Of a stretch of 45,923 nucleotides of DNA, positions 17,512-45,923 are shown piece after piece (the first letter of the stretch is position 1; each line of letters starts with the position of its first letter). The notes under the pieces were generated by a model. That model did not search any database. It was not told the DNA's origin and saw nothing but the letters and a program-made list of their open reading frames with translations. This DNA is from a candidate division WOR-3 bacterium. Its GTDB lineage: Bacteria > Hydrothermota > Tepidihabitantia > Tepidihabitantales > Tepidihabitantaceae. Position numbers and translations under genes: made by a program. The DNA is taken from NCBI GenBank assembly GCA_030612625.1, contig JAUWNN010000001.1, positions 1 through 45,923 on the forward strand. Reading direction: 5' to 3'.

Positions 17512-17606
17512 CTGTGAGCGGTCAGCGGACGGCGCATCAGCATCTGTACGTCTTTCTTGTCAATCTTCATGGCGGCGGGAGTGTAGGTAACGTCCCCAGC
17601 AACCGC

Positions 17607-20106: not shown

Positions 20107-20239
20107 TGGAATCCTCCCGATTTCCTGTTTCCATCGCCCGGGGAGTCTTGGGGACACAACGCTCAACCTCAAGAATTCGGCCACGCTGCCCATTCGGCTC
20201 TCACGGTTGGTCGTGTGGGCAGCGGCCTCCTTTCCCACA

Positions 20240-21301: not shown

Positions 21302-21340
21302 TACACCCGTCAGCATAAGAGAAAGACGGCTTGACGTCAA

Positions 21341-21740
21341 CCAAAGGATGAGCCAAAGGTTTTGAAAGCAGAAGTATCGGTGCGAGAACGGGCCTCAAAA
21401 CGGGCTTTGAAAAAGGTATCTGAAAAAGGTATTTGACAAGGTATCGCAGAAGGGCTGAAAAAGGCCTGGGAAAAGGCCGCTGAAAAGCGAAGGCAGAACC
21501 TTCTGGGGAACGGGGGAGGGGTAAATGGCGAATTCCGAATAACGAATGGCGAATCAAGGGGTTAGGAGGAATTTGGGGCTTGATGGGATATGACTAACTG
21601 GTATTGTCGGTCCATTCTCGTGCAGGCGGCGAGGAACCGGAGAAGTCAGAGTTCAGAAGTCAGAGACCAGAATGCAGAAAGCCCGGGCCGGAGTTCTGAC
21701 TTCTAGTGTCTGCATTCTGACTTCTGCATTGTCCTGTCTT
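21341..21740. repeat. Repeat block: short irregular GAAAAGG-type array, conserved flank module and a long imperfect inverted repeat
   Basis: An irregular 11-13-nt array lies at about 21340-21492 (tttgaaaaaggt, atctgaaaaaggt, atttgacaaggt, ctgggaaaaggc ...). The flank core is at 21523-21566. The inverted repeat cagaagtcaga...gaatgcaga / tctgcattctgacttctg spans 21641-21730. Confidence 0.75.
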
Positions 21741-26786: not shown

Positions 26787-29165
26787 TTGGCCGGGCGTAG
26801 CCTTGAACTGTTGGACTTCCCACGCATCAGGGAACTGGTGGCCGGGTTCTGCCGGACACAGATGGGCAAAGAACCGGCACTTGGTATGTTGCCGCGAGCT
26901 GACCCTGAGTGGGTTGCAGAAGAGCTTGACAAGGTGGACGAACTGCTGGCATTGGGTGAAGAGCCAAGTCTGTCCGAAGTGGTAGATGTGCGTGATTTGC
27001 TGACCCGGGCACGGCAGGGAGCAGCGCTCAGCGGTAAGGAGTTGCTGAATGTGAAGCAGGTCTGTGCCGGGATTCGGAGATGCCGGCAGTTTTTTTCCCG
27101 CCGGCGCGACCGGATTCCAAAGGTCTGGCTGATAGCACGTTTGCTTGTTGAACAGGCCGAGTTGGAGCAGGCGGTCGAGAAGGCGCTTGACGATGCCGGG
27201 GAGGTTTGTGATACAGCAACTCCAAGATTGAAACAGACCAGGCAGGAGCTGCGGCGGCGGCGCAACAAGCTGGTTTCTCGCCTGGAGCATATGGCAGCAG
27301 ACCATCCGGACTGGTTTACCGACCGACCAACAGTTCGGCGGGACCGCTTCGTGCTGCCGGTGCGGATTGAGGCACGCGACCGGGTAACCGGAGTGATACA
27401 CGAGAGCTCGGGCACCGGTCATACCCTGTTTGTCGAACCGATGGAGACGGTTGGCGAGCAGAATGAGCTGGCAGAGTTGCGGGGCATTGAGGTTGAGGAG
27501 GTTGCCCGGATTCTGCGGTCCTTGTCCGACTTGGTGGCGGAGCGCGAACAGCAGTTGCGGGCAAGTCTGACCCGGACAGGTAAGATTGACCTGCTGCTGG
27601 CCAAGCGGCGTTTTGCTTTGGAGTTTGACTGCAAACGGCCGGAAATCACTGATGACGGGGGGATTCAACTGGTTGCGGGTCGGCATCCGCTGCTTGTCCG
27701 GAGAAAGGTTCGTGTGGTGCCGCTTGACTTCGGATTCCCGGAAGATGCTCAGGTTGTGTTGATTTCCGGGCCGAATGCGGGCGGCAAAACCGTAGCCATA
27801 AAAACCCTTGGGCTTCTCAGCCTGATGATGGGGTGCGGCATGCATCTGCCGGTAGGTGATGGAGCAAGGCTGCCGCTGTTCCGGGAGGTGTTTGCCGATA
27901 TCGGCGACGAACAGTCGCTTGATTCGGACCTTTCGTCGTTTACCGCCCATATGACAAGGCTGAAGGGTATTCTCGAACAGGCTGACGAGCATAGTCTGGT
28001 CCTGCTTGATGAAATCGGTTCTTCCACTGCTCCGGAAGAAGGGGTTGCGCTGGCAATTGCGGTGCTGGAGATTCTTCGGAATCGCGGAGTCCGGACCGTT
28101 GCCACGAGCCATTTCGGTGTCTTGAAGGTATTCGTGCAGGACCAGCCCGGGATGGTGAACGCGGCAATGGGTTTTCAGGACGGCCAGCCCACCTACCGGT
28201 TGACAATCGGTTTTCCGGGTGAGTCCAGTGCCTTTGAGATAGCGGCCGGTGTCGGGCTGCCCGATGAACTGCTTGAGAAGGCACAGGCACGGTTGGGACG
28301 GGAATGGCTGGACTTGAGTACCAAGCTGCGGGATTTGAATCAGGAGCTGGAGCAGGCCCGGGTGTCCCGGCAGACCGCAAGCGAGGAGCAAGCACGGGCT
28401 GAGCGGCTGAGACTGGAGTACGAGGAGAAGCTTGTCGGGCTGAGGCAGCGGGCAGCAGATGAACAGCAACGACTGCGAGCCGAACAAGAAACTTTCTTAA
28501 GGGAAACCCGGCGCGAGGTTGAGAATCTGGTTCGGCAGATTAAGGAAAGCCAGGCAGAACATGAGGCGGTTGTCAAGGCCAAGCGGTATGTTGAGGACCG
28601 GCTCAAACAGGTGACTGCGACTGCTGCTGAGGTCAAGGAGAAGCATCCTTCATTCGAACTTACGGTCGGAGACGTTGTGGAGTCACGGATGTTCCAGCGC
28701 CGCGGGGTAGTGGCAGACATCAGGCGCGACCAGGTGACAGTGGCGTTCGGGCAGATTCGGATGCAGCTTTCTGCCGATGACCTGACACTCGTGCAATCAG
28801 AAGTCAGACAGAAACAAGAGGTTGCCGAGCCAGGTGAATCATACAGTTTTGAGCCTAAACTGAGTATCAGAGGGATGACCAAGGAACAGGCATCTGAAGC
28901 GGTCAGCCGGTTTCTGGATGAAGCCGGTTGTTTCCGAGCAAAGCAACTGGCGATACTGCATGGCAAGGGAACCGGGGCCTTGCAGAGAATGCTCTGGGAC
29001 CGTCTGCGCAAAGACCCACGGGTAGAGGAACTCCGGTTTGGCGAGGAGTATCAAGGCGGCAGTGGAGTGACTCTCTTGACTTTGAGGATGCCGCGCAGCG
29101 GCAGTTCAGAAAAGAACAAGGAATTTCCTTCTTCTATTCGGCCCGGCGCAAAGCGCCGTCCATAA
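26787..29165 (+). CDS. mutS2: Endonuclease MutS2 (MutS domains III/V plus C-terminal Smr)
   Basis: Walker A ISGPNAGGKT, LLDEIGSST, a long coiled coil and an Smr domain (LSIRGMTKEQA...ILHGKGTGALQ). Start placed at TTG 26787, six nt after AGGAG; the ORF-track start 26574 overlaps rpsU. The last roughly 15 codons lie in a repeat module. Confidence 0.85.
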   Translation: MAGRSLELLDFPRIRELVAGFCRTQMGKEPALGMLPRADPEWVAEELDKVDELLALGEEPSLSEVVDVRDLLTRARQGAALSGKELLNVKQVCAGIRRCRQFFSRRRDRIPKVWLIARLLVEQAELEQAVEKALDDAGEVCDTATPRLKQTRQELRRRRNKLVSRLEHMAADHPDWFTDRPTVRRDRFVLPVRIEARDRVTGVIHESSGTGHTLFVEPMETVGEQNELAELRGIEVEEVARILRSLSDLVAEREQQLRASLTRTGKIDLLLAKRRFALEFDCKRPEITDDGGIQLVAGRHPLLVRRKVRVVPLDFGFPEDAQVVLISGPNAGGKTVAIKTLGLLSLMMGCGMHLPVGDGARLPLFREVFADIGDEQSLDSDLSSFTAHMTRLKGILEQADEHSLVLLDEIGSSTAPEEGVALAIAVLEILRNRGVRTVATSHFGVLKVFVQDQPGMVNAAMGFQDGQPTYRLTIGFPGESSAFEIAAGVGLPDELLEKAQARLGREWLDLSTKLRDLNQELEQARVSRQTASEEQARAERLRLEYEEKLVGLRQRAADEQQRLRAEQETFLRETRREVENLVRQIKESQAEHEAVVKAKRYVEDRLKQVTATAAEVKEKHPSFELTVGDVVESRMFQRRGVVADIRRDQVTVAFGQIRMQLSADDLTLVQSEVRQKQEVAEPGESYSFEPKLSIRGMTKEQASEAVSRFLDEAGCFRAKQLAILHGKGTGALQRMLWDRLRKDPRVEELRFGEEYQGGSGVTLLTLRMPRSGSSEKNKEFPSSIRPGAKRRP

Positions 29166-32637: not shown

Positions 32638-32977
32638 GCCGGCTGGGGCTGATTTCCGATACTCATGACAACCTTGGCAAAGTCAGGGTTGCGGTGGAAC
32701 TGTTCAACCGGCTCAAACCGGATATGGTTCTGCACTGTCCCAAGAACCGAAATAGAGCCACGAAGACACGAAGAACACGAAACGGAGATAGGGTGACACC
32801 CTGCGCAGCGCAAGGGTGTCACCCCTACTGCGCAGGGTGTCACCCTTACAAGTTCTGGATCCGGGAGGTTCCGTCTTTCGTGGATTTCGTGATTTCGTGG
32901 CCAAACGTATATCGGTTTTCGGGACTGTGGCGCTGCTGGATACCGACACCGGCATGGTTGAGTTCTTCGACTTGTAG
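32634..32977 (+). pseudogene. Relic of a YfcE/MJ0936-type metallophosphoesterase whose core is replaced by a repeat element
   Basis: The N-terminal 35 codons read [35 protein letters not shown] (DxH motif; ATGA-coupled to rpoD), then run into the repeat at 32736. In a different frame, 32921-32977 reads GTVALLDTDTGMVEFFDL*, a typical C-terminus of this family. The GD, GNHD/E, His and GHTH motifs are missing. Confidence 0.65.
32736..32920. repeat. Mosaic repeat element inside the phosphoesterase relic
   Basis: Contains cccaagaaccgaaatagagccacgaagacacgaagaacacgaaac (also inverted at 240-290), the near-perfect 16-bp hairpin gggtgacaccctgcgc-a-gcgcaagggtgtcaccc (32791-32824) and tttcgtggatttcgtgatttcgtggccaaac. 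Confidence 0.85.
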
Positions 32978-34344: not shown

Positions 34345-35643
34345 ATGAGTTCCCGGGTTCTTCTTGTCGGGGTTGCTGATTCCAGCCGGTCGCGGTGGGC
34401 CAAGGCGGATTCACTCGATGAGCTGGCGGCCCTTGTCCAGACTGCGGGCGGCAGTGTTGTCGAGCAACTGGTGCAGGTGCGGCAGAAACCGAACCCGGCG
34501 ACTCTGGTGGGCAAGGGGATGGTTGTCCGGCTGGGCCTGATGTGCCAGGAACATAAGATAGACTTGCTCATATTCGATGACGAGTTGAGCCCGACTCAGT
34601 TGCGCAATCTTGAAGAAAGCATCGGTGTCAGGGTCATTGACCGAGCCGCCTTGATTCTGGACATTTTCGCTCTTCATGCCCGCACCGCTGAAGCGAAAAT
34701 ACAGGTGGAACTGGCCCAACTGGAATACCGGCAGAGCCGGCTCACCGGTCTGGGCATAGAGATGTCCCGGCTGGGCGGAGGCATCGGAACCAGGGGACCG
34801 GGTGAGACCCAGCTCGAAGTTGACCGGCGCAGGATTCAGCAGCGGATTGTGACGCTGCGTCGAGGTTTGACCCGCATTGACCGGGAAAGGTTAACCCAGC
34901 GGCGGCGGCGGACCGGTCTTTTCCAGGTGGTGCTGGTCGGATACACGAATGCGGGCAAGTCAACTTTGTTCAATCGGCTCACCCAGGCCCGGGTCAGAGT
35001 GTCGGACCAGCTTTTCGTCACGCTTGACCCCAACACCAAGGCGCTGGACCTGAGCCGGCACATCCGGTTGGTCCTTACCGATACAGTCGGGTTCATTCGG
35101 AGCCTGCCGGTTCAACTGGTCGCCAGTTTCCGTGCAACGCTTTCCGAAGTGCGGGATGCGGACTTGTTGCTGCATGTGGCCGATGCCATTGACAGCCAGG
35201 TTGACCGGAGGATAGACGCTGTCAATGACACTCTGGAACAGGTGGGAGCACAGGACAAGCCGGTGTTTCTTGTTTTCTCCAAGATTGACAAGGTGTTTGA
35301 TGAAGCGGTGCTGGGAAGATTGCGGCGCGGATACAGCAACGCGGTATTCGTGTCCGGGAAGACCGGGGCCGGGGTCGAGCAACTGAAGTCGATGATGCAG
35401 CGTCTTGTTGAGCGCCAGATGGTAAGCCGGAGTTTCACTATCCCTGAGTCGAAATGGGACTTGGTCAGCCTGGTCCGCAGCTCGGGTCGGGTTGTGAAGG
35501 ACGAGGCGCATGATGGCAAGCGCCGGATGGTTGTGCGCGGATTCCGGCCGGTTCTGGGCCGGGTGCGTAAGGAAGTCGACCTGGCGCTGGGTCGGACAAA
35601 CAGAAGGATTCAAGGGGCCAAGGGTTCAACCCTGGAACCCTAG
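34345..35643 (+). CDS. hflX: GTPase HflX
   Basis: HflX N-domain (LDELAALVQTAGG, LIFDDELSPTQLRNLEE, DRAALILDIFALHA, GPGETQLEVDRR) and G domain (VVLVGYTNAGKSTLFN, TDTVGF). ATG 34345 follows AGGAGG. The last roughly 13 codons lie in repeat module B. Confidence 0.9.
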   Translation: MSSRVLLVGVADSSRSRWAKADSLDELAALVQTAGGSVVEQLVQVRQKPNPATLVGKGMVVRLGLMCQEHKIDLLIFDDELSPTQLRNLEESIGVRVIDRAALILDIFALHARTAEAKIQVELAQLEYRQSRLTGLGIEMSRLGGGIGTRGPGETQLEVDRRRIQQRIVTLRRGLTRIDRERLTQRRRRTGLFQVVLVGYTNAGKSTLFNRLTQARVRVSDQLFVTLDPNTKALDLSRHIRLVLTDTVGFIRSLPVQLVASFRATLSEVRDADLLLHVADAIDSQVDRRIDAVNDTLEQVGAQDKPVFLVFSKIDKVFDEAVLGRLRRGYSNAVFVSGKTGAGVEQLKSMMQRLVERQMVSRSFTIPESKWDLVSLVRSSGRVVKDEAHDGKRRMVVRGFRPVLGRVRKEVDLALGRTNRRIQGAKGSTLEP

Positions 35644-35662
35644 AACCCTGGAACCCTTTTTC
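35603..35662 (+). repeat. Module B repeat (ggttcaaggggccaagggttc...cctggaaccc), possibly acting as the hflX terminator
   Basis: The sequence ggattcaaggggccaagggttcaaccctggaaccctagaaccctggaaccc is followed by ttttt. gggttc/gaaccc can pair. Confidence 0.7.
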
Positions 35663-35664
35663 TA

Positions 35665-35853
35665 TTAGTCTTCCGTCTTAATTGCTTCAGTCGGGCAGTC
35701 TTCGGCCGCTTGGCGCGCGCACTCTTCCGCACCTTCTGGGATGACATCCACCTTGAGTTTGGCGGTGTCGTCTTCCATCTCGAAAAGGTCCGGGCAGGTG
35801 GTGACACACAGCTCGCAGCCGGTGCACAACTCTTTGTCGATAGATACCTTCAC
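35665..35853 (-). CDS. Small single-cluster ferredoxin
   Basis: 62 aa; CTGCELC...TCP and ...DCPTEAI cysteine pattern. GTG start after AGGAGG. Confidence 0.85.
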   Translation of the reverse strand: MKVSIDKELCTGCELCVTTCPDLFEMEDDTAKLKVDVIPEGAEECARQAAEDCPTEAIKTED

Positions 35854-35870
35854 TTTACCTCCTGTTACAA

Positions 35871-35925
35871 AAAGGGTTCAAGGGGCCAAGGGTTCGAGGG
35901 TTCAAGTCCTGGAACCCTTTCTTTG
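35871..35925 (+). repeat. Module B repeat copy
   Basis: aaagggttcaaggggccaagggttcgagggttcaagtcctggaaccctttc. Confidence 0.8.
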
Positions 35926-35971: not shown

Positions 35972-37070
35972 TCAAGAGCTAATTGAATCGGGCCCTGAGC
36001 CGGGTCGGGTGAGAAAGGCGTGGACAAACCGCTCGATTCTGCCGTTCATCACACCTTCGAGGTCATGGGTTTCAACACCGGTGCGGTGGTCCTTCACCAG
36101 TTGGTACGGGAAGAATACATAGGAGCGTATCTGGTGGCCCCAAGCGATGTCGGTCTTTGCCGCATCCAGTTTCTTCCGTTTTTCGTCCTGCTGAAGCTTG
36201 TAGAAATTGTAGAGCCGGGCGCGCAGGATTCTAAGCCCGTTCTGCTTGTTCTGGAACTGGGAGCGCTCGTTCTGGCAACTGACCGCAATGCCGGTGGGGA
36301 TGTGGGTTATTCGGACCGCGGAACTCACTTTGTTGACGTTCTGGCCGCCATGTCCCCCGGCGCGAAAAGTGTCCACTTTGAGGTCGTTTGGGTCGATTTG
36401 GACTTCGATTTCCTCGACCGCGGGATAGACCGAGACCGCGGCGAAACTGGTGTGGCGGCGCTGGTTGGTGTCAAAGGGTGAGATGCGGACCAGCCGGTGG
36501 ACACCGGCCTCGGACTTAAGAAGGCCGTAAGTATTGGTGCCGGTCACCTCGAGGGTGGTGTCCTTGATACCGGCTTCTTCATTGGGCTGGAAGTCAAGCA
36601 TCCGATAGCTGAGTCCCTGGTTTTCGATATACCGTGTGTACATCCGCAACAGCATCTCGGCCCAGTCGCACGATTCAGTGCCTCCTGCCCCGGGGTGGAT
36701 GGAAAGAATCGCGGCCCGGGTGTCCTCAGGAGAGTTGAACATTCCCCGTTCTTCGAGCGCCTGCAACTCCTGTTGGATTTGGGCGAAGTGGTCATTCAGC
36801 TCTTTTGTGACCGATTCGTCTTTCTGGAACAACTGTTCCATTTCCGATGCGTCCTGGAATTCTTTTTCAAGCCGGGCCACGCGGTCCACAATGTCCTGAA
36901 GCGCGGTGATGCGCCGCATCACCTCCTGAGCCCGGGCTGAGTCATTCCAGAACTTCGGGTTGGAGCTTTCGGTAGTGAGTTTTTTCAGTTCGGCCTGGCG
37001 TCCGGTCAGGTCAAAGGAACTCCCGGAGCCCGTGCAGACGGGCGGCCAGGGCGTCTAGCTGCTCGGACAT
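35972..37070 (-). CDS. prfB: Peptide chain release factor 2 (requires a programmed +1 frameshift)
   Basis: Frame 0 reads [22 protein letters not shown] (37070-37011). After a +1 shift it continues [35 protein letters not shown] into ORF 35972..36922, which carries SPF (ISPFD) and GGQ ([10 protein letters not shown]). The total length of 1099 nt equals 3n+1. Confidence 0.93.
37010..37025 (-). promoter_or_regulatory. prfB: prfB +1 frameshift site
   Basis: Minus strand: CGG GAG TTC CTT TGA C, that is an SD-like GGGAG, a 3-nt spacer and the slippery CUU UGA C, as in E. coli prfB. Confidence 0.9.
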
Positions 37071-37077
37071 AGAAAGG

Positions 37078-37190
37078 GGTCTAGGGTTTTAGGGTTCCAG
37101 GACTCGAATCCTTGGCCCTTGAACTCTTCTTTTTGCCGTCCACTTGGACCCTTGGCCCCTTGGCCCCTTGAACCCTTTTCTTGGTTGGTG
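37078..37190 (-). repeat. Module B repeat copy (extended), overlapping the rpmE 3' end
   Basis: The reverse complement reads aagggttcaaggggccaaggggccaagggtccaagtgg...gagttcaagggccaaggattcgagtcctggaaccctaaaaccctag. Confidence 0.8.
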
Positions 37191-38656: not shown

Positions 38657-38815
38657 ATACGCTCCTTTAGGGATTGTTTCTCGCCGGTCCCTTCGGCGTG
38701 GATTGCGACAACTGTGTGCTATAGCAACTGTTCAGTCTTCAATTAGGTCTTCAAGACTTCTCCGAGGGAACGAAAGATCAAACCACGTTGTTCAGCTTGT
38801 GTCTTACTGTGCCCA

Positions 38816-38843
38816 AGTATAGGAAATCCAATACCGGTGTCAA
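38816..38843 (-). promoter_or_regulatory. Sigma-70-like promoter of rho (leader of about 150 nt)
   Basis: Minus strand: TTGACA (38843-38838), 16-nt spacer, TATACT (38821-38816). Confidence 0.5.
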
Positions 38844-38856
38844 GCTTATTACGTAT

Positions 38857-39085
38857 CCCGAAAACCGATATAGGATTGGCCACGAAAGAAGGATGCCGCT
38901 GCGCGGCAGACTTCGAAATGAAAAGGAATTCCCATTTTTATCCGACCTCGGGCTCAGCGCCGTCCAATCCCCGAAAGATGAACAGAAGAGGGTTCAAGGG
39001 GCCAAGGGTTCAAGTCTAGAATCCTGGAACCCTGGAACCCTGGAACCCTAGAATCCTTTTTCTGGAATCCTGGAACTCCTTTCCC
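38857..39085. repeat. Composite repeat: inverted copy of 17399-17511 followed by a module B copy
   Basis: 38857-38970 aligns with the reverse complement of 17399-17511. 38988-39085 reads gggttcaaggggccaagggttcaagtctagaatcctggaaccctggaaccctggaaccctagaatcc... Confidence 0.85.
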
Positions 39086-39165
39086 GGCCCTGCCGTTCTT
39101 GCGGCCGGACCCGGGGTCCTATGAACTGACCCCGGGCCCCGGACGCGGGTTTTCTCTGGCCTGTT

Positions 39166-39378
39166 TCATTTCAGGCTGAATTCTAGCTTCTCGGTCTTGA
39201 GCAGCCTGTTGGTTGCCTTCATCCGCTGCTGGTAGGTCTCGCCTGCTTCTTTCAGGTCCACCCTCGGGCCTACGGTTACAGCCTCAACCCGATGCACCCG
39301 CAACAGCACAAGGGCAAGCACGACAAGGCTACCTGCTGCCAGAAAGTAGAGGGCCTTACCGAGACGTGTGGCTATCAT
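39166..39378 (-). CDS. Small membrane protein, hypothetical
   Basis: 70 aa; ATG preceded by AAGGAGG. One N-terminal TM helix (ALYFLAAGSLVVLALVLL). No family recognised. Confidence 0.55.
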   Translation of the reverse strand: MIATRLGKALYFLAAGSLVVLALVLLRVHRVEAVTVGPRVDLKEAGETYQQRMKATNRLLKTEKLEFSLK

Positions 39379-39841
39379 AGCTTCCTCCTTTTTTCGCCTG
39401 GCTTCTGTTGCACACGCCTTGATAAGAGCAGCGACTGTGCCTGAAAAGCCCTTTTTGGTAACTGATGCCTTTTCAGGAAGTTACAGAGGTGGCCAAGTTG
39501 ATATATCCGATTGGTTTCTCGTGTAATGAGACAATGGTTTGCGGCTGGAAACAAACATAGACCGCTAAGCCCATTTGACAGCGATACTTACGGGCTGTCT
39601 CATCCTGCAATGCAGGTATCAGGAGATTGTCATGGAATGAGACACAAAACCCACAGACTGGCAGGAATCTGCCGGGTCCTCAGTTCAGTACCCTTTGTCT
39701 GCGTCCTTTGTCGTGATTACCTTCTTGTTCCAAGACGCCCGCAATCCTGTCGGTGCTTTGGCTAATCGCTTGTGGCTTGGGAACTTACCTCAGAAATAGA
39801 ATCTCAGGGTGCTTCAGAAAGTCGCCAGGGGGGGTCACTCC

Positions 39842-40141
39842 CCAGGTGACTTCCCATCTCAACCCGGATTTCATCTCAGGGCTCAGGACCGAAGTCAGAA
39901 TCCGGCTCAGCTTCCGGCTCAAAACGGATGTCACTTCGGGTATCAGCCGGGATTTCAGATGCCTGGTCATTCGGCAGTTCAGAATCGGGTTCATTCTCGG
40001 TTTCAGCCCGGGCTTCATTTCCGAAGTCAGAACCCGGTTCAGCTCCGAGTTCAACTCCAGATTCAGCTCCGGGCTCAGCCTCGGATTTAGCTTCCAGCTC
40101 AGCCCCGAAGTCAGAATCCGGCTCAGCTTCGGAAGTACGTT
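39842..40141 (+). repeat. Phased 12-nt degenerate tandem array, 25 units, consensus CSG-NN-TCAG-NNN
   Basis: 25 consecutive 12-mers with no indel (ccaggtgacttc ... cgaagtcagaat, ccggctcagctt ... cggaagtacgtt). The reverse complement, NNN-CTGA-NN-CSG, shares a CTGA...GG skeleton with the GAAAAGGC arrays. A short version lies at 1722-1800 and at 45893-45923. Confidence 0.9.
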
Positions 40142-40196
40142 CTGAACCTGATAACAGGAGCATTCCTCAAGGGTCAAGCGTGATGCGTTGAGCGTA

Positions 40197-42989
40197 TTAC
40201 CGTGGGTGCTTGAGCCCGGGGATTTCGGTTCGGTCGCCTGTGATGCCGTAGATGAGCTGATTCAATGGGTCCGGTTCTTGCTTGCGGAAGTCTACCCGGT
40301 GAAAGTCCTCAAGGAATATGGACCAGTCTGGTTCCTCTTCGGCTCCTTGCAGAACCACAGGAATGACGCGGAGTCCTGCGTCGACGAAACGCCGAAGCAG
40401 GGCGCGACTCTCGAGTCGTTCCCATCTGCCGGTGAAGTTCGGGCCGACGAACACTGCCGCAGTCTTCACGAGTTTGATAATGCGGTCGAGCTCTTTAATC
40501 CACACATCGCCGGGCCTGAGTTCCCATTCATCCAGCCAGGGCAGGATTCCGTGCTCGATTAGCTTCTTGGCAATCTCCTTGACCGCGGGTTTGTCTTTGC
40601 TGTTGTGGCAGAGGAACACGTCGAAGTCCCCGGTCTTTCTCTTGCCTTCGATAACTGAGACCGCGGCTTCCTTTTCCCGTCTGACGTCTGCTTCCTTGTC
40701 CAGTTCAGATACTGTTACAGCTTCGACAGCTACCGCCACCGCTTCGACCAGCGAGATGCGGGTGTCGCAGGACGGGCAAATGAGCGAGTCGAGTCCGCGC
40801 TCCTGCCTGAGCCGGAGCAACTGGTCGGACACCACAAACCCGCAGCCTTGACATACGATGATTCTGCGGCGGTAGATTGTTTCAGGCAAAGCCCGGCGCT
40901 GGAGATGCGCGGCAATGTAATCCTCGAACAAAAGCCTGGTATCCGGGCCTGTTTCCTCGCTGTAGAACAGGGTCAACTCTGCTTTGCCTTCTTCGATTTG
41001 CTTGAGGAACATGCCGCATTCGCCGCGTGCCCTGGTCTTGTAAACGACCGCGTTCTTCCAAAGCTCCTGGTCTTTGAACATCCCGCTGTGCCAGAGCCTG
41101 ACCGCTAAGGTGGCATACAGGTTCAGAACCGGGCCCTGGAATCCGTAAGCCACGGCCTTGCCAGGAGGGTCAGGTATGTCCGGGTTCTCGCGCGTGAACT
41201 GGGAAGGGAACACCAGGTGGGGCCCGAGGTCGTCCCGTTCTCTGAGCGCGATTTCATAACGCAGAAGCTCCTCAACCATTGCAATGAGCAGCAGCTCTTC
41301 CTGTTTCTTGTCCTTGACCCGCTCATCTTTCGACATCTTGAACCGGCCTGCAAGCGCATCAGGCTCAGGTATGGAGCCAAGCCCATGGGCTTCTTTCCTT
41401 GCGGCATTGACCATTGCCGAAGCATAAGCATCCAGAAGCTCAGGCTGGAGCAGGACAAGGTTCCCGAAACTCAGCCTGCGCACCAGGCCCCGTGATTCGA
41501 CCAGGGTGATGCAGGTTGCAAACTGAGCTCGGAGTTCAGGGGTCTTTTCCGGCGCATCCCCGGTCCTGAGCAACGCCCGATAAAGGTCGTCTTCAGTGGA
41601 AAGCAGGCGTCCGGCTTCTTTTTCCGAGACCAGGAACCGCTTGATTTGCTGGAAAAGCTCGGTCGAGCTTACTTCGGGCAGAGCTTCCCAGTCTATTGCC
41701 TGCTTGATTGCCTGGGCAAGCTCTGGGATGTCCCAGCCTTCTCTGGCGCTGGTCTCAAAATAGCGGTCGAACCCAAGCTCCTTTGTCAGTGCCTCGATTC
41801 TGGGTTTGCTCACCGGCGGCCCGCCCCGGTCGGTCCTGGCCGCGACCAGGAACTTCTTCATCCGTATGCCTGAGCCTTGCTGGGCACGGGCCGCGGTGCG
41901 CAAAGCCCGGTCCCAGTGATGCACGCCCGCAAATGGGTCGGTTTCGCTCCGGGCATCAAAGAGAACCAGGGCGACCGCGACTTCGTTCAAGGACAACTGA
42001 AGAATCAGCCGGTATCCGGCCTGGCCTGCCAGGTCCCAGAGCAGGGTTTCCCGGGTCTCTTTGCGCTTGTGGTCAAGCTTGATTACTTGGGTGTCGAACT
42101 TCCATACATGCCGGCTGTGGGTTGATTCGGTCGGCCTGAACTTCTCGCGGGTCAGCACAAGCCCAAGCCCGGTCTTGCCCACCCCGGTGTCGCCGACCAG
42201 CACGACTTTCGCGTTCCGGTATCGGCCGGTTCTGACCTCGGGTTTCCTCCCAAGCAGGGCTTGGATGTCCAGGTCCCAGATGCGGATGACCGTGTCTTTT
42301 TCTCCGGTCAGGGCAAGGACCGGTTGACTGGGATGAAAAGCAATACCCCGAGCTGTCCAGTACTCCAAGCCAGGTTCGTTCAGGACCGCGACAGTCTCAA
42401 AGGTGTCAATGCGCCAGACCCGGACTTCGTTCCGAGCCTTTGAGCAGAGCAGGCTGCTGTCTGAAGAAAAGGAAAGACTGAGAACTGGTTCGGTATGGCC
42501 TTCGAGCACAGTCTGCTTTCCGGTTTCAGGACTCCAGACCCGTACTGTCTGGTCAGGGGAACAGGATGCCAGGCTTTTGCCGTCAGCAGACCAAGCAACG
42601 CCAAGGACTAGGCTGCCATGTCCTTTGAGCACCCGGAGCTCTTTTCCGGTTTCAGGGTTCCAGATACGGACTGTGCGGTCTCCAGAACAGGATGCCAGGA
42701 GTTTGGAGTCAGGGGACCAGGCAAGGCCCCAGACTATGCCGTAATGTCCTTTGAGCACCCGGACCTGTTTCCCGATTTCAGGGGCCCAGATACGGACTGT
42801 GTTGTCAACAGAACCGGACGCCAGGAGTTTGCCGTCAGGAGCCCAGGCAAGGCCGGCAATCTCAGCCTTGTGTCCGGCCAGGGTGCGTCTCAGTTCCAGG
42901 CCGGGAGGGACTTTGGGTTTCTCAGGCATCAGGATAGTAGTAGCCGAATCAGCCGGGTTGTCAAGCAGAGTCGGCTGTGGGAGCGACAT
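40197..42989 (-). CDS. WD40 - Roc-type small GTPase - COR-like region - Zn ribbon - TIR multidomain protein (NLR-like architecture)
   Basis: WD40 blades at aa ~35-255 (LxGH...SVDNTVRIW, SGDRTVRIW, SPDQTVRVW). GTPase at aa ~268-435 (GDTGVGKT, DLAGQ, AARTD, TSA). Helical region of about 270 aa. CQGC...CPSC. TIR at aa ~778-915 (FDVFLCHNSKDK, LPWLDEWEL, GRWERLE). Confidence 0.75.
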   Translation of the reverse strand: MSLPQPTLLDNPADSATTILMPEKPKVPPGLELRRTLAGHKAEIAGLAWAPDGKLLASGSVDNTVRIWAPEIGKQVRVLKGHYGIVWGLAWSPDSKLLASCSGDRTVRIWNPETGKELRVLKGHGSLVLGVAWSADGKSLASCSPDQTVRVWSPETGKQTVLEGHTEPVLSLSFSSDSSLLCSKARNEVRVWRIDTFETVAVLNEPGLEYWTARGIAFHPSQPVLALTGEKDTVIRIWDLDIQALLGRKPEVRTGRYRNAKVVLVGDTGVGKTGLGLVLTREKFRPTESTHSRHVWKFDTQVIKLDHKRKETRETLLWDLAGQAGYRLILQLSLNEVAVALVLFDARSETDPFAGVHHWDRALRTAARAQQGSGIRMKKFLVAARTDRGGPPVSKPRIEALTKELGFDRYFETSAREGWDIPELAQAIKQAIDWEALPEVSSTELFQQIKRFLVSEKEAGRLLSTEDDLYRALLRTGDAPEKTPELRAQFATCITLVESRGLVRRLSFGNLVLLQPELLDAYASAMVNAARKEAHGLGSIPEPDALAGRFKMSKDERVKDKKQEELLLIAMVEELLRYEIALRERDDLGPHLVFPSQFTRENPDIPDPPGKAVAYGFQGPVLNLYATLAVRLWHSGMFKDQELWKNAVVYKTRARGECGMFLKQIEEGKAELTLFYSEETGPDTRLLFEDYIAAHLQRRALPETIYRRRIIVCQGCGFVVSDQLLRLRQERGLDSLICPSCDTRISLVEAVAVAVEAVTVSELDKEADVRREKEAAVSVIEGKRKTGDFDVFLCHNSKDKPAVKEIAKKLIEHGILPWLDEWELRPGDVWIKELDRIIKLVKTAAVFVGPNFTGRWERLESRALLRRFVDAGLRVIPVVLQGAEEEPDWSIFLEDFHRVDFRKQEPDPLNQLIYGITGDRTEIPGLKHPR

Positions 42990-43110
42990 CCTTGTCGCGA
43001 TTTGGTCGAGGCTGGGAAGCCTCTCCCACAGGCCGAAGGCAGAATGCAGAAGTGGGAGAACAGAAAGCAGAGGAGTGAAGCCGGACTCAGACCGGACGAG
43101 TGCTCCGGTT

Positions 43111-44562
43111 CTACCTGACCAGCAGCAGCCTTCTGGTTTCGCTCTGCCCGGCCGCGAGGAACCTCAGGAAGTATGGGCCAGTCGGCACTCTTGCTTTGAA
43201 GTTGTCCTTTCCGTCCCAGGCTATCGTATGTCTGCCGGATTCCTGCCTGCCGCTGACCAATGGCCGCACTTCTTCGCCAAGCAGGTTGTAGACCGTTATA
43301 TTCACATTGCCACTTCTGGGCAGTCGGTATTGGATACGGGTTCTGTGCGTGAACGGGTTCGGTTCAATCTGACGCATAAGGTGAACTTTCTCGGCAGATT
43401 CCTGTTCTGCAATCTTGACATCGGGTTCAAGCTTGAGCAGCCAGAGGTCAGCGCCGCCCGCCCCGAAGGCAGCCGTCCATCCGGTCACAATGTACCCCTG
43501 GTCAACGGTTTGCTGAACCGCATAGCCGATTTCGTCTTCGCCCGGCCCGCCGTAGGTCCTTGTCCAAACGGTATCTCCATTTTCACTGGTCTTCAGGAGC
43601 CACAGGTCAGCACGGCTTGGCGAGAACCACCCGAAGTGTCCGACAACAACATATCCGAGGTCAGAAGTCTGTTCAACCCCCCAACCTTGGTCGTCATACG
43701 ACTGACCATAAGTCCTTGTCCAGACGGTATCTCCATCTGGGTCGGTCTTGATAAGATAGAGGTCTCGACCACCGGCACCGAACGAAGTTGTGAATCCGGC
43801 AATGATGTAACCGGAATCAGCGGTCTGTTTGACACAGAACCCATAGTCGTAGCCAGTCCCGCCGTAAGTCCTGGACCAAATGCTATCTCCTCCTGCGTCA
43901 GTCTTTATGAGCCAGACATCGTAGCCTCCAGCACCGAATGAACCAGTCCAGCCGGTAATGATGTATCCACGGTCAAGGGTCTGCTCGACCCAATTGCCAA
44001 CATCGCTCCCTGCTCCGAAGTACGTCTTTGTCCACTGGACATCACCATTGACATCGGTCTTCATGAGCAACATATCCTCCAGATGGTCGTAGGATGCTCC
44101 CACCATGATGTATCCGGAATCAGTGGTCTGTTGAATCGAATGGATGTTGCCTATTCCGTGCGTCCTTGTCCAGGTTGTATCGCCATTTCCACTTGCCTTG
44201 ACCATGTAAACATGGCAGCCGCTCGGCAACTGAGTGTATCCTGCGACAATGTAGCCTTGGTCAAAGGTCTGCCGGACTGAGGCACCGTGTTCATGCCCTT
44301 CCCCGCCCAGTATCAGTGTCCAACTGGTGTCTCCCCAAACGTCAGTTTTGAGGAGATAGAGGTCTGATGCGCCTGCACCGAAAGAAAAGGTGTTACCAGA
44401 AACGATATACCCGGAATCAGAAGTCTGCTGAACCGACCGGCCTGCATCACCGCGCGGCCCTCCATATGTTCTTGTCCAGACTGTGTCAGGAGCCTGGGCA
44501 AGCAGGCTGGTCGCTACAACGAGCAATCCCAGAACAAGCACTGCGCCGAATCGTCGCTTCAT
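43111..44562 (-). CDS. Secreted beta-propeller-like repeat protein with T9SS C-terminal sorting domain
   Basis: Signal peptide MKRRFGAVLVLGLLVVATSLLAQA. About 8 units of roughly 48 aa (W(T/S)RTYGGxxxDxGxxVxQTxDxGYIxxGxTxSFGAGGxDxWLxKTDxxGD). C-terminus: IEPNPFTHRTRIQY...GPYFLRFLAAGQSETRRLLLVR. Confidence 0.75.
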   Translation of the reverse strand: MKRRFGAVLVLGLLVVATSLLAQAPDTVWTRTYGGPRGDAGRSVQQTSDSGYIVSGNTFSFGAGASDLYLLKTDVWGDTSWTLILGGEGHEHGASVRQTFDQGYIVAGYTQLPSGCHVYMVKASGNGDTTWTRTHGIGNIHSIQQTTDSGYIMVGASYDHLEDMLLMKTDVNGDVQWTKTYFGAGSDVGNWVEQTLDRGYIITGWTGSFGAGGYDVWLIKTDAGGDSIWSRTYGGTGYDYGFCVKQTADSGYIIAGFTTSFGAGGRDLYLIKTDPDGDTVWTRTYGQSYDDQGWGVEQTSDLGYVVVGHFGWFSPSRADLWLLKTSENGDTVWTRTYGGPGEDEIGYAVQQTVDQGYIVTGWTAAFGAGGADLWLLKLEPDVKIAEQESAEKVHLMRQIEPNPFTHRTRIQYRLPRSGNVNITVYNLLGEEVRPLVSGRQESGRHTIAWDGKDNFKARVPTGPYFLRFLAAGQSETRRLLLVR

Positions 44563-44592
44563 ATCGACTTCCTCTTTCCTGCAGGAACCTGC

Positions 44593-44631
44593 CTACCTCG
44601 CAAGCAGCAGCCTTCTGGTTTCGCTGCGCAT
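44593..44631 (-). pseudogene. 39-nt relic of the 3' end of a paralogous T9SS-sorting-domain gene
   Basis: The minus strand reads MRSETRRLLLAR*. Its last 33 nt match the last 33 nt of CDS 43111..44562 (QSETRRLLLVR*) at 30 of 33 positions. Confidence 0.6.
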
Positions 44632-44742
44632 ATCAGTGACGTTAATCCTTTTCTGACATTTTCCGGCTGCCGGGTTGCGATTGAACTTAGCGGACTGACC
44701 GGCAGAGACGTAATGTAGAGATAAGCTGACTATAGAATCAGC

Positions 44743-45423
44743 TCACTCGCTTTTCTTGCTGTCCCATTCCTCTCTTGTCTTGGCTACTACTTTCCCCACA
44801 TTGGCAAGCCTTTCAATACCATCATACGACCCCTTCATTGTGTAGGTCTCTCCGCTCTTGATAGGCTTGTTACGTGAAGCCATAGTCATCAAGATAGCCC
44901 ATCCTTCAATCTCTTTGCCATCTTTGTCGATAAAGCGCAAATAGGCAAACAGGGTGCCGCGCTTGTTATCTGCGACCGCTTCAAATGTCGCTTCGATATC
45001 CATACGCGATCCATCATCCCAGAAATTTGCCCCTGTTACTTTGATGTTCTTGATGAGGAACTTGTCTTTGTCTGCTTCCTGCTCAAAGGGGATTTCTATG
45101 CCCTTAGTCGCTTCGATAGCTGACTTAGCCTCAGCTTCGGCCTTCTTTTCAATCTCCTTCACTTTCTCTTCTGCTTTGCCGTAGGCATTCACATCCATCT
45201 TCTGCTCGGCCTTTTCCATGGCTTTCTGCGCCCCCTCCATTTGTTGCATGGTTTTCTTGGCTATCGAAGGGAGTTTGCCGAGTAGTCCGCCGCCGCCGCC
45301 GCCGGATTCGGACCCGCATCCGACCAGGCAGACTGCTGATGTGAGTATGACTGCCAATGCGACTACGGCCAGATGCCTGACCGCAAGTGGAGTGCCGGGG
45401 AGCGAAACGCTTGCCCTTTTCAT
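44743..45423 (-). CDS. Lipoprotein, hypothetical
   Basis: Start moved to ATG 45423 (RBS AAGGAG). Signal peptide with lipobox (LTSAVCLVGC), a Gly-rich linker, then a Lys/Glu-rich helical region. No family recognised. Confidence 0.6.
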   Translation of the reverse strand: MKRASVSLPGTPLAVRHLAVVALAVILTSAVCLVGCGSESGGGGGGLLGKLPSIAKKTMQQMEGAQKAMEKAEQKMDVNAYGKAEEKVKEIEKKAEAEAKSAIEATKGIEIPFEQEADKDKFLIKNIKVTGANFWDDGSRMDIEATFEAVADNKRGTLFAYLRFIDKDGKEIEGWAILMTMASRNKPIKSGETYTMKGSYDGIERLANVGKVVAKTREEWDSKKSE

Positions 45424-45777
45424 TCTGGTCTCCTTTTTCTTTGTGCCCTTGCGGGCACGCTCTACTGACTCTGCACGACTGGAAATCGTGCCTGCATTCG
45501 GGTTCTCTTTTTCAGAAATTCCAACCTCCTTCCGTTGCCCTCGATAGCGCAACCGGCATTACCTGACTCGTTCGTACCGGGCAGTATCTGATGCGCTGCC
45601 CTATCCGGCCTTGTTCCTTTCCTTTCCCGGAATCCATATCTCCTGCAGTGTATTGATTCCATGTTGCCTGTCAACCGGAATCAATTCGTCCGAAAACCGA
45701 TATAGGAATCTCACCACAGGACGCGTAATGCGTTGTGCGTGGATTGGGCAAGCCTGGCGGTAGGTCGCCAACAGATA

Positions 45778-45923
45778 CCAAGACCAGGACAAACCTGGTC
45801 GCCCCTTATTGAGCCGAGCCCGCTGCGGAGTGGGCTGCGGAGTCAGCAGCGGACCGAGCTGCTCCAGAGCTGCTGGGAGGTCACTGGGGAGGTGGCTCTC
45901 GATTTCAGTTCGGATTTCAGCTT
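45778..45923 (+). repeat. Direct repeat partner of 1607-1752 (truncated by the window end)
   Basis: About 95% identity to 1607-1752 with no gaps. It is preceded by other mosaic modules (ccgaaaaccgatatagg at 45683, cgtaatgcgt words at 45725). Confidence 0.85.

Follow-up and report, generated by a model that had tools for sequence, protein, structure and literature searches.

Does a single gene of a candidate division WOR-3 bacterium join a repeat sensor, a ROCO-type GTPase switch and a TIR effector into an immune receptor that works like an NLR? The question is raised by an open reading frame in contig JAUWNN010000001.1 (assembly GCA_030612625.1), of which positions 1 to 45,923 were analyzed (the window, 45,923 nt). 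An initial annotation, made from the letters of the DNA, had divided the predicted protein into WD40 blades, a Roc GTPase, a COR-like region, a four-Cys ribbon and a TIR domain, and had proposed it as a candidate immune sensor.

Domain architecture of the 930-residue protein

The ORF was confirmed as one ATG-started frame on the minus strand, uninterrupted over 2.8 kb and with all catalytic residues intact (Table 1). A full-length AF2 model of the 930-aa protein gave a pLDDT of 84.4 and a pTM of 0.83. The N-termini of homologs, which lie ~10 residues ahead of a PPG(F/L)xLR motif, suggest M21 (ATG 42927-42929) as the possible true start. Of 268 conserved columns, the window copy departs from the family in 21 (family median 13, maximum 31), ranking 12th of 96 in such deviations.

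Table 1 Features of the ORF and its 5' spacer, in window coordinates
Feature	Position	Strand	Remarks
Whole ORF	40197..42989	minus	ATG start, 930 aa, span includes stop; WD40 - Roc - COR (by predicted fold) - Zn ribbon - helix - TIR
N-terminal leader, aa 1-30	42900..42989	minus	predicted disordered; pLDDT <50 for aa 1-21
WD40 beta-propeller, aa 31-242	42264..42899	minus	5 blades: 3 canonical + 2 degenerate; presumed ligand sensor
Three tandem 126-nt DNA copies (repeat family D5) coding canonical blades	42517..42894	minus	78% and 61% identity to first copy
Roc/Ras-type GTPase, aa 254-431	41697..42230	minus	Pfam Ras + Roc
P-loop GDTGVGKT, K272	42174-42176	minus	G1
Switch II DLAGQ, Q323	42021-42023	minus	
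G4 AARTD, D387	41829-41843	minus	
G5 TSA, aa 413-415	41745-41753	minus	
COR-A-like part, aa 432-600	41190..41696	minus	two winged-helix-like units; Foldseek, no sequence profile
COR-B-like part, aa 601-705	40875..41189	minus	alpha/beta sheet domain; dimerization module in ROCO proteins
Cys4 zinc ribbon, aa 706-746	40752..40874	minus	C713, C716, C738, C741
Long linker helix from Zn ribbon to TIR, aa 757-786	40632..40721	minus	DSSP helix in model
TIR domain, aa 789-917	40239..40625	minus	Pfam TIR_2
Candidate catalytic Glu E860	40410-40412	minus	
W856	40422-40424	minus	
Intergenic spacer 5' of gene, 121 nt	42990..43110	minus	presumed promoter/5'UTR; no significant repeat

The N-terminal repeats, originally put at about five WD40 blades, were recovered in that number: the Pfam WD40 profile matched five stretches (E 3e-47), and the AlphaFold model formed 20 strands, equivalent to five blades, within aa 31-240, with blades 1-2 modelled less confidently (pLDDT 54-80). 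The presence of WD40 repeats is certain, but their number compares with a family mode of seven (range 3-16; 3-6 blades in 17 of 113 members), which is also the usual number in a closed WD40 ring. Since a five-bladed ring is unusual, the sensor is perhaps impaired, or repeats were collapsed during assembly. The tandem 126-nt blade copies are consistent with repeat gain and loss through recombination. In the family comparison, the most variable blade positions occupy fixed places within a conserved scaffold: within the 42-aa blade, positions 5, 7 and 23 are hypervariable, with entropies of 3.6-4.0 bits, against <1 bit for the scaffold.

The assignment of the following domain to the Ras/Roc-type GTPases was corroborated by two Pfam models, Ras (59.5 bits, cutoff 21.6) and Roc PF08477 (48.9 bits, cutoff 27), over aa 261-430. 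The G1-G5 motifs are intact at the places claimed for them, and every one of them falls in alignment columns with full invariance or at least 90% conservation among 96 homologs. By sequence, the nearest solved GTPases in the PDB were Rab32 and Rab7L1 (E 4e-11) rather than Roc domains. A STAND-class AAA+ NTPase was rejected as the central switch: STAND models, NACHT and NB-ARC among them, did not match the window protein, AAA_22 and AAA_24 matched the P-loop weakly (E ~0.04-0.06), and the central NTPase is Ras/Roc. The protein would thus be NLR-like in its working, yet it is not an NLR.

The next 274 residues (aa 432-705) occupy the place of COR. Pfam COR was unmatched in the window protein, and in 21 family members even at E<=10, and a PDB sequence-profile search with this region returned zinc-finger noise only, with no Roco or LRRK chains. 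In contrast, when an AF2 sub-model of aa 432-760 (pLDDT 85.1) was compared with the PDB by Foldseek, the best 24 matches were all ROCO COR entries, from C. tepidum Roco, LRRK2 and LRRK1 (E 5.9e-10 to 1.1e-3; 3dpt_A at 5.9e-10, 6hlu, LRRK2 8fo9 at 4.7e-8 and LRRK1 8e04 at 8.3e-8). The alignments cover ~314-355 columns, that is, both COR halves, and the matches after these 24 entries were unrelated and partial. The TM-scores were modest (~0.3-0.4, with an rmsd of ~9-10 Å), probably because the inter-subdomain hinge differs. It is therefore the structure model, and not the sequence profiles, that argues for aa 432-705 as COR; with this predicted fold, the switch would be a genuine ROCO tandem and the protein a true ROCO with a TIR output. 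The initial annotation had described a helical region of about 270 aa at the COR place and a ROCO-type switch instead of a STAND ATPase. The latter agrees with the COR fold after Roc and the lack of NACHT/NB-ARC matches; as for the former, the place and the COR assignment by fold hold, but the region is alpha/beta, built of winged helices and a sheet, rather than purely helical.

Both annotated elements of the C-terminal part were also borne out. In the four-Cys ribbon, three residues (C716, C738 and C741) show no variation among the 96 homologs and the fourth, C713, has at least 90% conservation; Zn-ribbon profiles matched weakly (E 0.05). The ribbon is kept in relatives with a non-TIR effector, indicating that it is part of the scaffold. 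The linker helix (aa 757-786), possibly a coiled coil judging from the model, has a conserved MDRxADxxR motif that is found in non-TIR relatives too. The TIR domain scored above the cutoffs of Pfam TIR_2 (76.4 bits, cutoff 28) and TIR PF01582 (26.3 bits, cutoff 21.3), and beta/alpha elements alternate in the model of aa 791-917. A phmmer search of the PDB with the TIR gave 7uxr (7.7e-8) and AbTIR 7uwg/8g83 (2.5e-6). The candidate catalytic residue E860 aligns with the Glu of AbTIR WTNYE, W856/E860 corresponding to the WxxxE motif of AbTIR, and both residues are at least 90% conserved among the 96 homologs. In AbTIR, the Glu of this W-x3-E motif is catalytic. ThsB profiles matched the TIR weakly (E 5e-5 to 2e-2), and PADLOC recognized the TIR part only.

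Family distribution and genomic context

The COR region was matched by 1457 clusters (50% identity), 477 of them at E<=1e-30. The family is spread patchily over ~10 phyla, with hosts in Chloroflexota, Cyanobacteria (including a Calothrix plasmid), Acidobacteriota, Planctomycetota, Verrucomicrobiota, Actinomycetota, Myxococcota, Zixibacteria, Entotheonella and Bacteroidales. Relatives built on this WD40-Roc-COR-ZnR scaffold carry Guanylate_cyc, nSTAND2 or PNP_UDP_1 in the place of the TIR, and some have an AAA_21/AAA_15 ATPase after the TIR. No homologs were found in the viral contigs searched, a result that is neutral for an immune reading.

In the window, the gene is surrounded by Rho, RF2, HflX, RpoD, DnaK and similar housekeeping genes, with no defense genes seen among these neighbors. 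The neighbors of homologs are mostly housekeeping as well (five annotated loci); in 17 other loci, TIR models matched ~4 of 102 neighbors, and kinase, MADS and Mok two each, a sample without a control set and too small for an enrichment score. Defense-island association of the homologs, raised together with the immune proposal, was not seen in this sample. In the 5+17 homolog loci there is no conserved neighbor, and genomic position is not conserved; ThsA, SLOG and Macro neighbors are absent from the window and these 22 loci. The description of the region as accessory-looking is supported: past the start codon of Rho, four related WOR-3 contigs offer no counterpart to the window, and the four nearest WOR-3 relatives lack the gene at the Rho-adjacent place, though the adjoining block is syntenic. 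The GC content and codon usage of the gene equal those of core genes, giving no sign of recent mobility.

Of the repeats said to bound the gene, the adjoining 12-nt array (39842-40141) is real, with 25 units and a lag-12 identity of 0.52, but the window contains five arrays of this kind, and they represent a genome-wide WOR-3 feature, unrelated to the TIR gene. The repeat-like words on the other side reduce to a weak 7-mer, x3.3 by TRF, within the intergenic spacer (42990-43110), where a promoter scan yielded nothing above chance.

Taken together, patchiness, blade variability, effector exchange and unfixed position are traits typical of conflict systems.

A candidate conflict sensor and its alternatives

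On balance, we consider it probable that the gene product is a conflict sensor of NLR-like design, contained in one polypeptide and working through a Roc-COR GTP switch. The immune role first proposed is favored by the traits of the family, namely patchy occurrence, variable blades, exchange of effectors, lack of a fixed position or fixed neighbors and absence in relatives, but not by any defense-island association. In the scheme that we envisage, the resting protein would be autoinhibited. A protein or other ligand derived from an invader, most likely a phage, would bind the variable face of the propeller and change the nucleotide state of Roc, by which COR-mediated dimerization or oligomerization would be altered, as in other ROCO proteins. 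The zinc ribbon and the linker helix could then bring together two or more TIR domains, whose composite active site would cleave NAD+, causing its depletion and possibly yielding ADPR or cADPR-isomer products, and the infected cell would stop growing, amounting to abortive infection. As there is no conserved partner gene, direct NAD+ depletion is likelier than signalling to a separate effector.

The same parts could instead form a regulated cell-death or allorecognition device, with a propeller that senses self/non-self proteins or stress in social or filamentous bacteria, in the way of fungal WD40-NLR heterokaryon-incompatibility proteins, and a TIR NADase that kills, which we regard as unlikely. 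The blades, with their conserved scaffold and few hypervariable positions, resemble the WD40 repeats of fungal HET-E/NWD proteins, which are arranged in the same manner. In addition, no defense-island association was seen, and most hosts are filamentous or complex (Nostoc, Calothrix, Tolypothrix, Chloroflexia, Ktedonobacteria, Kofleriaceae, Lentzea, Entotheonella, Vecturithrix), in line with the link between such systems and multicellularity drawn by Kaur et al. 2021 (PMC8195603). Patchiness and effector exchange suit antiviral systems equally, however, and the host of the window is a WOR-3 bacterium. To our knowledge, this lineage is not multicellular. A Thoeris-like signalling enzyme, whose TIR makes a cADPR isomer or related messenger for an effector encoded elsewhere without depleting NAD+ itself, appears quite improbable. 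No ThsA/SLOG/Macro partner, or any conserved neighbor, accompanies the gene in the 22 loci, and the window copy is a singleton on the contig of a small-genome WOR-3 bacterium, where no candidate receptor lies close by. Such an enzyme would nevertheless accord with the weak matches of the ThsB profiles and with the closest solved TIRs by sequence, AbTIR and relatives, which make cADPR isomers; the nucleotidyl cyclase that replaces the TIR in some relatives likewise suggests that the effector slot takes signal-generating enzymes.

It is very improbable, in our estimate, that the window copy is decaying or mis-assembled, its propeller shortened and its function lost in the WOR-3 genome. Five blades against the family mode of seven, the lower confidence of blades 1-2 and the 12th rank in deviations point in this direction, and 126-nt blade repeats with 61-78% DNA identity make a deletion or an assembly collapse possible; yet repeats this dissimilar are not typically collapsed by an assembler, propellers of 3-6 blades occur elsewhere in the family, the 21 deviations lie inside the family range, and both the reading frame and the catalytic residues are preserved. 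Least probable is a housekeeping or signalling ROCO GTPase, for example in polarity, envelope or stress signalling, with the TIR as a non-catalytic adaptor and the WD40 repeats as a scaffold. The housekeeping neighbors, the core-like composition, a GTPase sequence closest to Rab-family switches and the unknown function of prokaryotic Rocos would all agree with it, but the conservation of the NADase-type Glu and Trp, the replacement of the TIR by enzymatic or NTPase effector modules, and the absence from close relatives combined with patchiness over phyla would not; hypervariable blade positions are also atypical of a fixed housekeeping interaction.

Extending the conflict-sensor reading to the whole family, we tentatively suggest a GTP-gated counterpart of NLRs, in which ligand binding on the hypervariable WD40 face might be relayed by a cryptic Roc-COR to the TIR, switching on its NADase activity by way of a family-specific zinc-ribbon/coiled-coil coupler. 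If true, no ROCO before it would have had an enzymatic death output open to direct assay, prokaryotic ROCO proteins would gain their first physiological role within reach of experiments, and the LRRK2-type switch would have begun as an immune and cell-death module. ROCO proteins are intensively studied because of LRRK2 and Parkinson's disease, and how the Roc-COR nucleotide cycle governs the output domain is still debated; a compact bacterial ROCO with a TIR NADase output would offer a simple readout of Roc-COR coupling, as NAD+ consumption or cell death, and would test the prediction of GTPase-centered NLR-like receptors in prokaryotic immunity. More than 1400 clusters have a predicted COR that current profiles miss, so that prokaryotic ROCO diversity is under-counted, and the propeller-type ROCO lineage escapes both Pfam COR-based censuses and statements that every prokaryotic Roco is LRR-RocCOR.

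Relation to known systems

Counter-invader systems with Roc ("AP-GTPase") and COR were predicted computationally by Kaur, Iyer, Burroughs & Aravind (eLife 2021, PMC8195603); their effectors, of 24 or more types, include TIR. These systems share with the window protein the order of fast-evolving repeats, Roc, COR and a variable C-terminal effector, and the patchy spread, but the main text describes N-terminal LRRs, and the propeller versions are without a COR call or a zinc ribbon. The architecture, which the initial annotation could not match to a characterized defense system, is already in their source data as "BetaPropeller+AP-GTPase+TIR", without COR; 'BetaPropeller+AP-GTPase+COR' has 0 rows there. 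The gene is hence a good candidate of a kind already catalogued computationally, not a new class, to which our analysis, likewise purely computational, adds the predicted COR fold, and the zinc ribbon and helix as parts of the scaffold. A literature search found no experimental work on any family member.

Among ROCO proteins, which couple their nucleotide cycle with dimerization (Wauters 2019), all prokaryotic Rocos identified are LRR-RocCOR according to reviews, and the physiological role of the bacterial ones is still unknown in the literature. In C. tepidum Roco (LRR-Roc-COR; 3DPU, 3DPT, 6HLU), COR comes straight after Roc, as in the window protein, which differs in having WD40 in place of LRR repeats, a zinc ribbon and TIR where the C. 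tepidum protein lacks any effector domain, and a putative COR too divergent for Pfam COR. LRRK2 and LRRK1 resemble it in the Roc-COR tandem (Foldseek E 5e-8 to 1e-3), the enzymatic output C-terminal to COR and WD40 in the same chain; LRRK2, however, has a kinase as its output and carries its WD40 at the C-terminus, and the COR identity is 10-13%.

Plant TNLs and bacterial Avs/bNACHT proteins combine a repeat sensor, an NTP-dependent oligomerization switch and a death effector, a design common to the window protein. Winged-helix modules after the NTPase are also shared with STAND/NLR receptors, but the latter use an AAA+ ATPase switch instead of a Ras-superfamily GTPase with N-terminal repeats, and they form large wheel-like resistosomes, whereas ROCO proteins are known as dimers. 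AbTIR and ThsB share with the window TIR the TIR_2 fold, the W-x3-E motif (AbTIR E 2.5e-6) and a helix or coiled coil ahead of the TIR; AbTIR is a small coiled-coil-TIR protein, whereas the window TIR ends a 930-aa chain that combines sensor and switch. ThsB works with ThsA in Thoeris, and membership in that system was rejected for the window protein, whose ThsB matches are weak and whose locus, like the 22 homolog loci, has no ThsA neighbor. Among eukaryotes, algal ROCOs (Teng et al. 2024, PMC11378527) include a TPR-ROCO-TIR protein in the red alga Chondrus crispus, besides LRR-ROCOs of brown algae proposed as immune receptors with diversifying repeats: the repeat-ROCO-TIR plan is alike at the domain level, but with TPR or LRR repeats and in a eukaryotic lineage.

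Domain architecture and the COR region

The ROCO-TIR gene encodes WD40 repeats, a Roc GTPase, a COR-like region, a zinc ribbon, a helix and a TIR domain, in that order. The WD40, Ras/Roc and TIR assignments made in the initial annotation are all above the curated profile thresholds, and the motifs quoted there are present where it had placed them. Across 96 aligned full-length homologs (50-62% identical), the G-motif residues, the four cysteines of the claimed ribbon and E860 of the TIR domain all fall in columns that are invariant or ≥90% conserved. The motifs for GTP binding and hydrolysis are intact, including the Gln of DxxGQ, which resembles Q61 of Ras, and G4 is modified, with ARxD instead of NKxD and the Asp kept. 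The TIR residues W856 and E860 are conserved and, in alignment, coincide with the WxxxE of AbTIR, an NADase (7UWG/8G83). The AlphaFold2 model of the full-length protein is confident (pLDDT 84.4, pTM 0.83). Its 20 beta-strands, which form five blades, are followed by an alpha/beta domain of Ras-like fold; a middle region of mixed structure, a small ribbon and a helix of 30 residues then lead to the last domain, in which beta and alpha elements alternate as in TIR. The first ~20 residues are disordered in this model, and the N-termini of the homologs suggest that the true start may be M21.

The initial annotation had placed COR behind the GTPase from position alone. Pfam returned nothing on aa 431-790 beyond sub-threshold zinc-ribbon matches, and its COR model matched 0 of 21 family members, even at E<=10. 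No Roco or LRRK chain was found among the PDB sequences with a profile from the trimmed alignment of the middle region, and the corresponding search with the untrimmed alignment was swamped by WD40, since all columns were used. The closest PDB sequences of the GTPase are Rab32, Rab7L1 and Rab38, not solved Roc domains, and Foldseek with the full-length model gave only WDR5 and other WD40 matches. To expose COR, we re-modelled aa 432-760 alone (pLDDT 85.1) and compared this model with the PDB by Foldseek. The top 24 matches were exclusively COR domains, including those of the C. tepidum Roco (3DPT/3DPU/6HLU, E 5.9e-10 to 9e-8), LRRK2 (4.7e-8 and weaker) and LRRK1 (8.3e-8), with alignments of ~314-355 columns that correspond to COR-A plus COR-B; the matches that followed were unrelated (~125-170 columns, E > 1e-3). 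The TM-scores to COR were modest, ~0.3-0.4, which we attribute to hinge differences between the sub-domains and which is still a caveat. Since the best matches are exclusively COR and extend over both sub-domains, we conclude that the protein is a genuine ROCO with a Roc-COR tandem, whose COR is too divergent for current profiles. The positional call is thereby borne out by structure modelling, without a sequence-profile match.

Features of the window and of the ROCO-TIR protein (nucleotide positions unless marked aa)
Position	Strand	Feature	Details
40197-42989	-	ROCO-TIR gene	ATG start, 930 aa, no interruption
aa ~33-242		WD40	five repeat stretches; profile search E 3e-47
aa 261-430		Ras PF00071	59.5 bits (cutoff 21.6)
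		Roc PF08477, same GTPase	48.9 bits (cutoff 27)
aa K272, Q323, D387, 413-415		GTPase motifs	GDTGVGKT, DLAGQ, AARTD, TSA
aa C713, C716, C738, C741		Cys4 ribbon	CQGC...CPSC
aa 791-913		TIR_2 PF13676	76.4 bits (cutoff 28)
aa E860		TIR motif	GRWERLE
39166-39378	-	70-aa ORF between Rho and ROCO-TIR gene	N-terminal hydrophobic helix; GGAGGA Shine-Dalgarno 5 nt before ATG
43111-44562; 18529-20262	-; -	secreted proteins	SBBP-like beta-propeller repeats; C-terminal FlgD_ig-type (T9SS-sorting-like) domain in each
1621-2046; 2395-2790; 17581-17934; 21337-21528; 39817-40152		five 12-nt arrays	strict 12-nt periodicity, 190-430 nt each
45777-45923		sixth 12-nt array, starting at contig end	95% identical to 1608-1754
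17393-17511; 38857-38976 (inverted)		dispersed intergenic element, ~120 nt	copies 87-88% identical
116-157; 29115-29162; 32876-32917		partial copies of ~120-nt element
35597-35665; 35870-35907; 37073-37179; 38981-39080	both orientations	REP-like intergenic elements	tandem 8-mers GGAACCCT / AGGGTTCA
16535-17134	-	PIN7-domain protein	E 4e-22; adjoins strongest 12-nt array
35972-36922	-	RF2 (prfB) ORF	316 aa; starts within PCRF domain (profile position 28)

Family, propeller variation and effector swapping

The full-length search recovered more than 120 proteins of ~1000 aa (~95% query coverage, 47-63% identity), which are named in their sources, where at all, as 'small GTP-binding protein', 'WD40 repeat protein' or 'TIR domain-containing protein'. 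Searched exhaustively by HMMER, the COR region by itself matched 1457 cluster representatives (50% identity) at E<=1e-3 and 477 at E<=1e-30. Across species-representative genomes, we found the Roc-COR-ZnR-TIR module in Chloroflexota (many), Planctomycetota, Verrucomicrobiota, Zixibacteria, Entotheonella, Bacteroidales and Vecturithrix, and also in Cyanobacteria (Nostoc, Tolypothrix, a Calothrix plasmid), Acidobacteriota (Pyrinomonadaceae, Blastocatellia), Actinomycetota (Lentzea) and Myxococcota (Kofleriaceae); the viral contigs scanned held no relative. Loci L030, L033, L035, L038, L042 and L043, from long-read MAGs of the 'MFD' series (Chloroflexia and Actinomycetota), carry a homolog fragmented by apparent frameshifts, which are probably assembly indel errors and not signs of pseudogenes, and these loci were excluded from the neighbour analysis.

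The number of propeller blades runs from ~3 to 16 and is most often 7 (74/113 proteins). The five blades of the window protein, three canonical and two degenerate, are unusual and could mean a weakened sensor. The consensus of 251 canonical 42-aa blades is GHxxxVxSVAWSPDGxxLASxSxDxTIRLWDxxTGxxxxTLx, in which scaffold positions have entropies below 1 bit, positions 5, 23 and 7 reach 4.0, 3.9 and 3.6 bits, and positions 4, 17, 25 and 33 reach 3.1-3.2 bits. Blades resemble each other more within one protein (64%) than between proteins (52%), and the canonical blades of the window ORF are 126-nt tandem repeats at the DNA level. The window copy deviates at 21 of 268 conserved columns, 7 of them through missing blades; its conservation is inside the family range (median 13, maximum 31).

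Among the 149 best COR-region representatives, ~95 have the WD40-Roc-COR-TIR order and ~30 keep WD40-Roc-COR with a tail other than this TIR. The sampled non-TIR tails still start with the zinc ribbon and an MDxxAD helix, after which come a class III nucleotidyl cyclase, an nSTAND2 NTPase, a PNP_UDP_1 phosphorylase or unknown coiled-coil regions, and some members add an AAA_21/AAA_15 ABC-type ATPase behind the TIR. Relatives P0150, P0174, P0142, P0155 and P0126 carry on the WD40-Roc-COR-Zn ribbon scaffold a class III cyclase, nSTAND2, a degenerate cyclase plus PNP_UDP_1, or TIR plus AAA_21/AAA_15; the tails of P0145 and P0194 contain no recognisable domain. Because these tails retain the ribbon and helix before different modules, propeller-Roc-COR-Zn ribbon-helix is the conserved scaffold and the effector slot is swappable.

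Genomic setting and repeats

The remaining window genes are housekeeping genes (GrpE-DnaK-DnaJ, RsmE, MutS2, DnaG, RpoD, RsmI, HflX, RF2, Rho, NrdD, RNase G, radical SAM). The contig is that of a candidate division WOR-3 bacterium: Rho is 90% identical to that of WOR-3 JGI_Cruoil_03_51_56, and the top matches that carry names are WOR-3. Four related WOR-3 contigs share synteny over the Rho-L31-RF2-...-RpoD-DnaG-MutS2 block; in them, tblastn and blastn found no counterpart of window 38657-45923, past the Rho start codon. The ROCO-TIR gene therefore lies in a strain-variable segment abutting the core block, in agreement with the earlier description of an accessory-looking region. We rejected a chimeric assembly or a recent horizontal transfer as the source of this segment's gene, because its composition is core-like (GC 0.583, GC3 0.672; codon-usage distance to core genes 0.056, core range 0.045-0.073) and both flanks contain dispersed repeats typical of the lineage and a secreted protein of the SBBP/FlgD_ig type. 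The 12-nt array downstream, previously taken as a boundary of the gene, was likewise rejected as part of the system: it is one of five across the window, such arrays occur in WOR-3 relatives (L067 619-984, L068 559-930, L069 1033-1374), and none lies behind homologs of other phyla. A small downstream ORF fared no better, the one such gene seen, in homolog locus L001, being unrelated.

In the five homolog loci with annotation, the gene stands alone, and its neighbours are unrelated and for the most part housekeeping; the exceptions are an NB-ARC/TPR STAND protein plus an IS3 element close to one copy and, 6 kb from a second copy, a small TIR protein. Crude neighbour ORFs at another 17 loci, 102 in all, were compared with PADLOC, without a control set; ~4 matched TIR models, 3 of them from the Calothrix plasmid locus, and a few matched kinase, MADS or Mok models. 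Three further TIR-domain genes, two with tandem TIRs (301 and 281 aa) and a third of 457 aa, lie directly behind the homolog on Calothrix sp. NIES-4101 plasmid4 (L008 12198-15350), the only clearly conflict-type neighbourhood among the loci examined. Homologs are thus not syntenic core genes, and the five loci and 102 neighbours did not show a defence-island link.

Several other features of the window were recorded. The two secreted proteins are remotely paralogous (22% identity, E 2e-9), and the gene of one lies directly upstream of the ROCO-TIR gene; the 70-aa ORF has no Pfam match and no counterpart among WOR-3 relatives. Promoter-like sites (2 versus 2.0 expected) and terminator-like sites (11 versus 7.2±3.2) did not exceed chance. 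The 12-nt arrays reach a lag-12 identity of 0.71, at 17.6 kb, have each their own conserved core (nnAAAAGGCnnn, nCCnnnACAAAG, nCnnnnTCAnnn) and are open in several frames, with tetrapeptide repeats in the high-GC3 frame; the repeat shared by the contig end and 1608-1754 probably broke the assembly. The ~120-nt element, which holds a GC hairpin (TGCCGCGCAGCGGCA) and is close to two 12-nt arrays, may be a REP/MITE-like element or a small RNA; an Rfam search of the window gave no match. The tandem 8-mer elements flank RF2, Rho and the stretch downstream of the ROCO-TIR gene. The PIN7 protein is possibly a toxin-type nuclease. A programmed +1 frameshift is usual at the prfB 5' end, and the late start of the RF2 ORF would be consistent with one.

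Proposed mechanism and relation to known systems

The active site of TIR NADases needs TIR-TIR association. The nucleotide cycle of ROCO proteins is coupled to COR-mediated dimerisation (Wauters 2019). We propose that a ligand on the variable propeller face would relieve autoinhibition, upon which the Roc nucleotide state would shift, COR, zinc ribbon and helix would draw the TIRs together, and these would cleave NAD+ and arrest the cell. We favour direct NAD+ depletion over a second messenger, given that the homologs share no conserved partner gene. An immune role of the protein is a plausible hypothesis. The suggestion of an NLR-like immune sensor is partly supported: the architecture holds in profiles and structure model, a defence-island link did not emerge at the loci examined, and the architecture is not unrecorded.

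Membership in a named defence system was rejected, as PADLOC and NCBIfam recognise the TIR part only (PDC-S66, retron-TIR, ThsB). The protein is not Thoeris, since ThsA is absent beside the homologs, and it is NLR-like in its working but not STAND, since no STAND model matched in profile searches. According to reviews, all identified prokaryotic Rocos are LRR-RocCOR (Wauters 2019), and a 2024 survey reports a TPR-ROCO-TIR protein from a red alga and puts forward the ROCOs of brown algae as immune receptors (PMC11378527). Literature searches on Roco with TIR/NADase, Roco anti-phage activity and 'AP-GTPase' after 2021 yielded no experimental study. The predicted counter-invader systems with Roc+COR ('AP-GTPase') combine fast-evolving N-terminal LRRs with at least 24 C-terminal effector domains, including TIR (Kaur, Iyer, Burroughs & Aravind, eLife 2021, PMC8195603). 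The propeller-Roc-TIR architecture, for which the initial annotation was aware of no characterised defence system, is already catalogued there, without discussion and without a COR call, and would be no surprise to a specialist. Our additions to that published prediction are incremental: a cryptic COR detected through structure, a zinc ribbon and helix that belong to the scaffold, and effector swapping in the propeller lineage. This family is a tractable system in which to study the function of prokaryotic ROCOs and the control of an output domain by Roc-COR.
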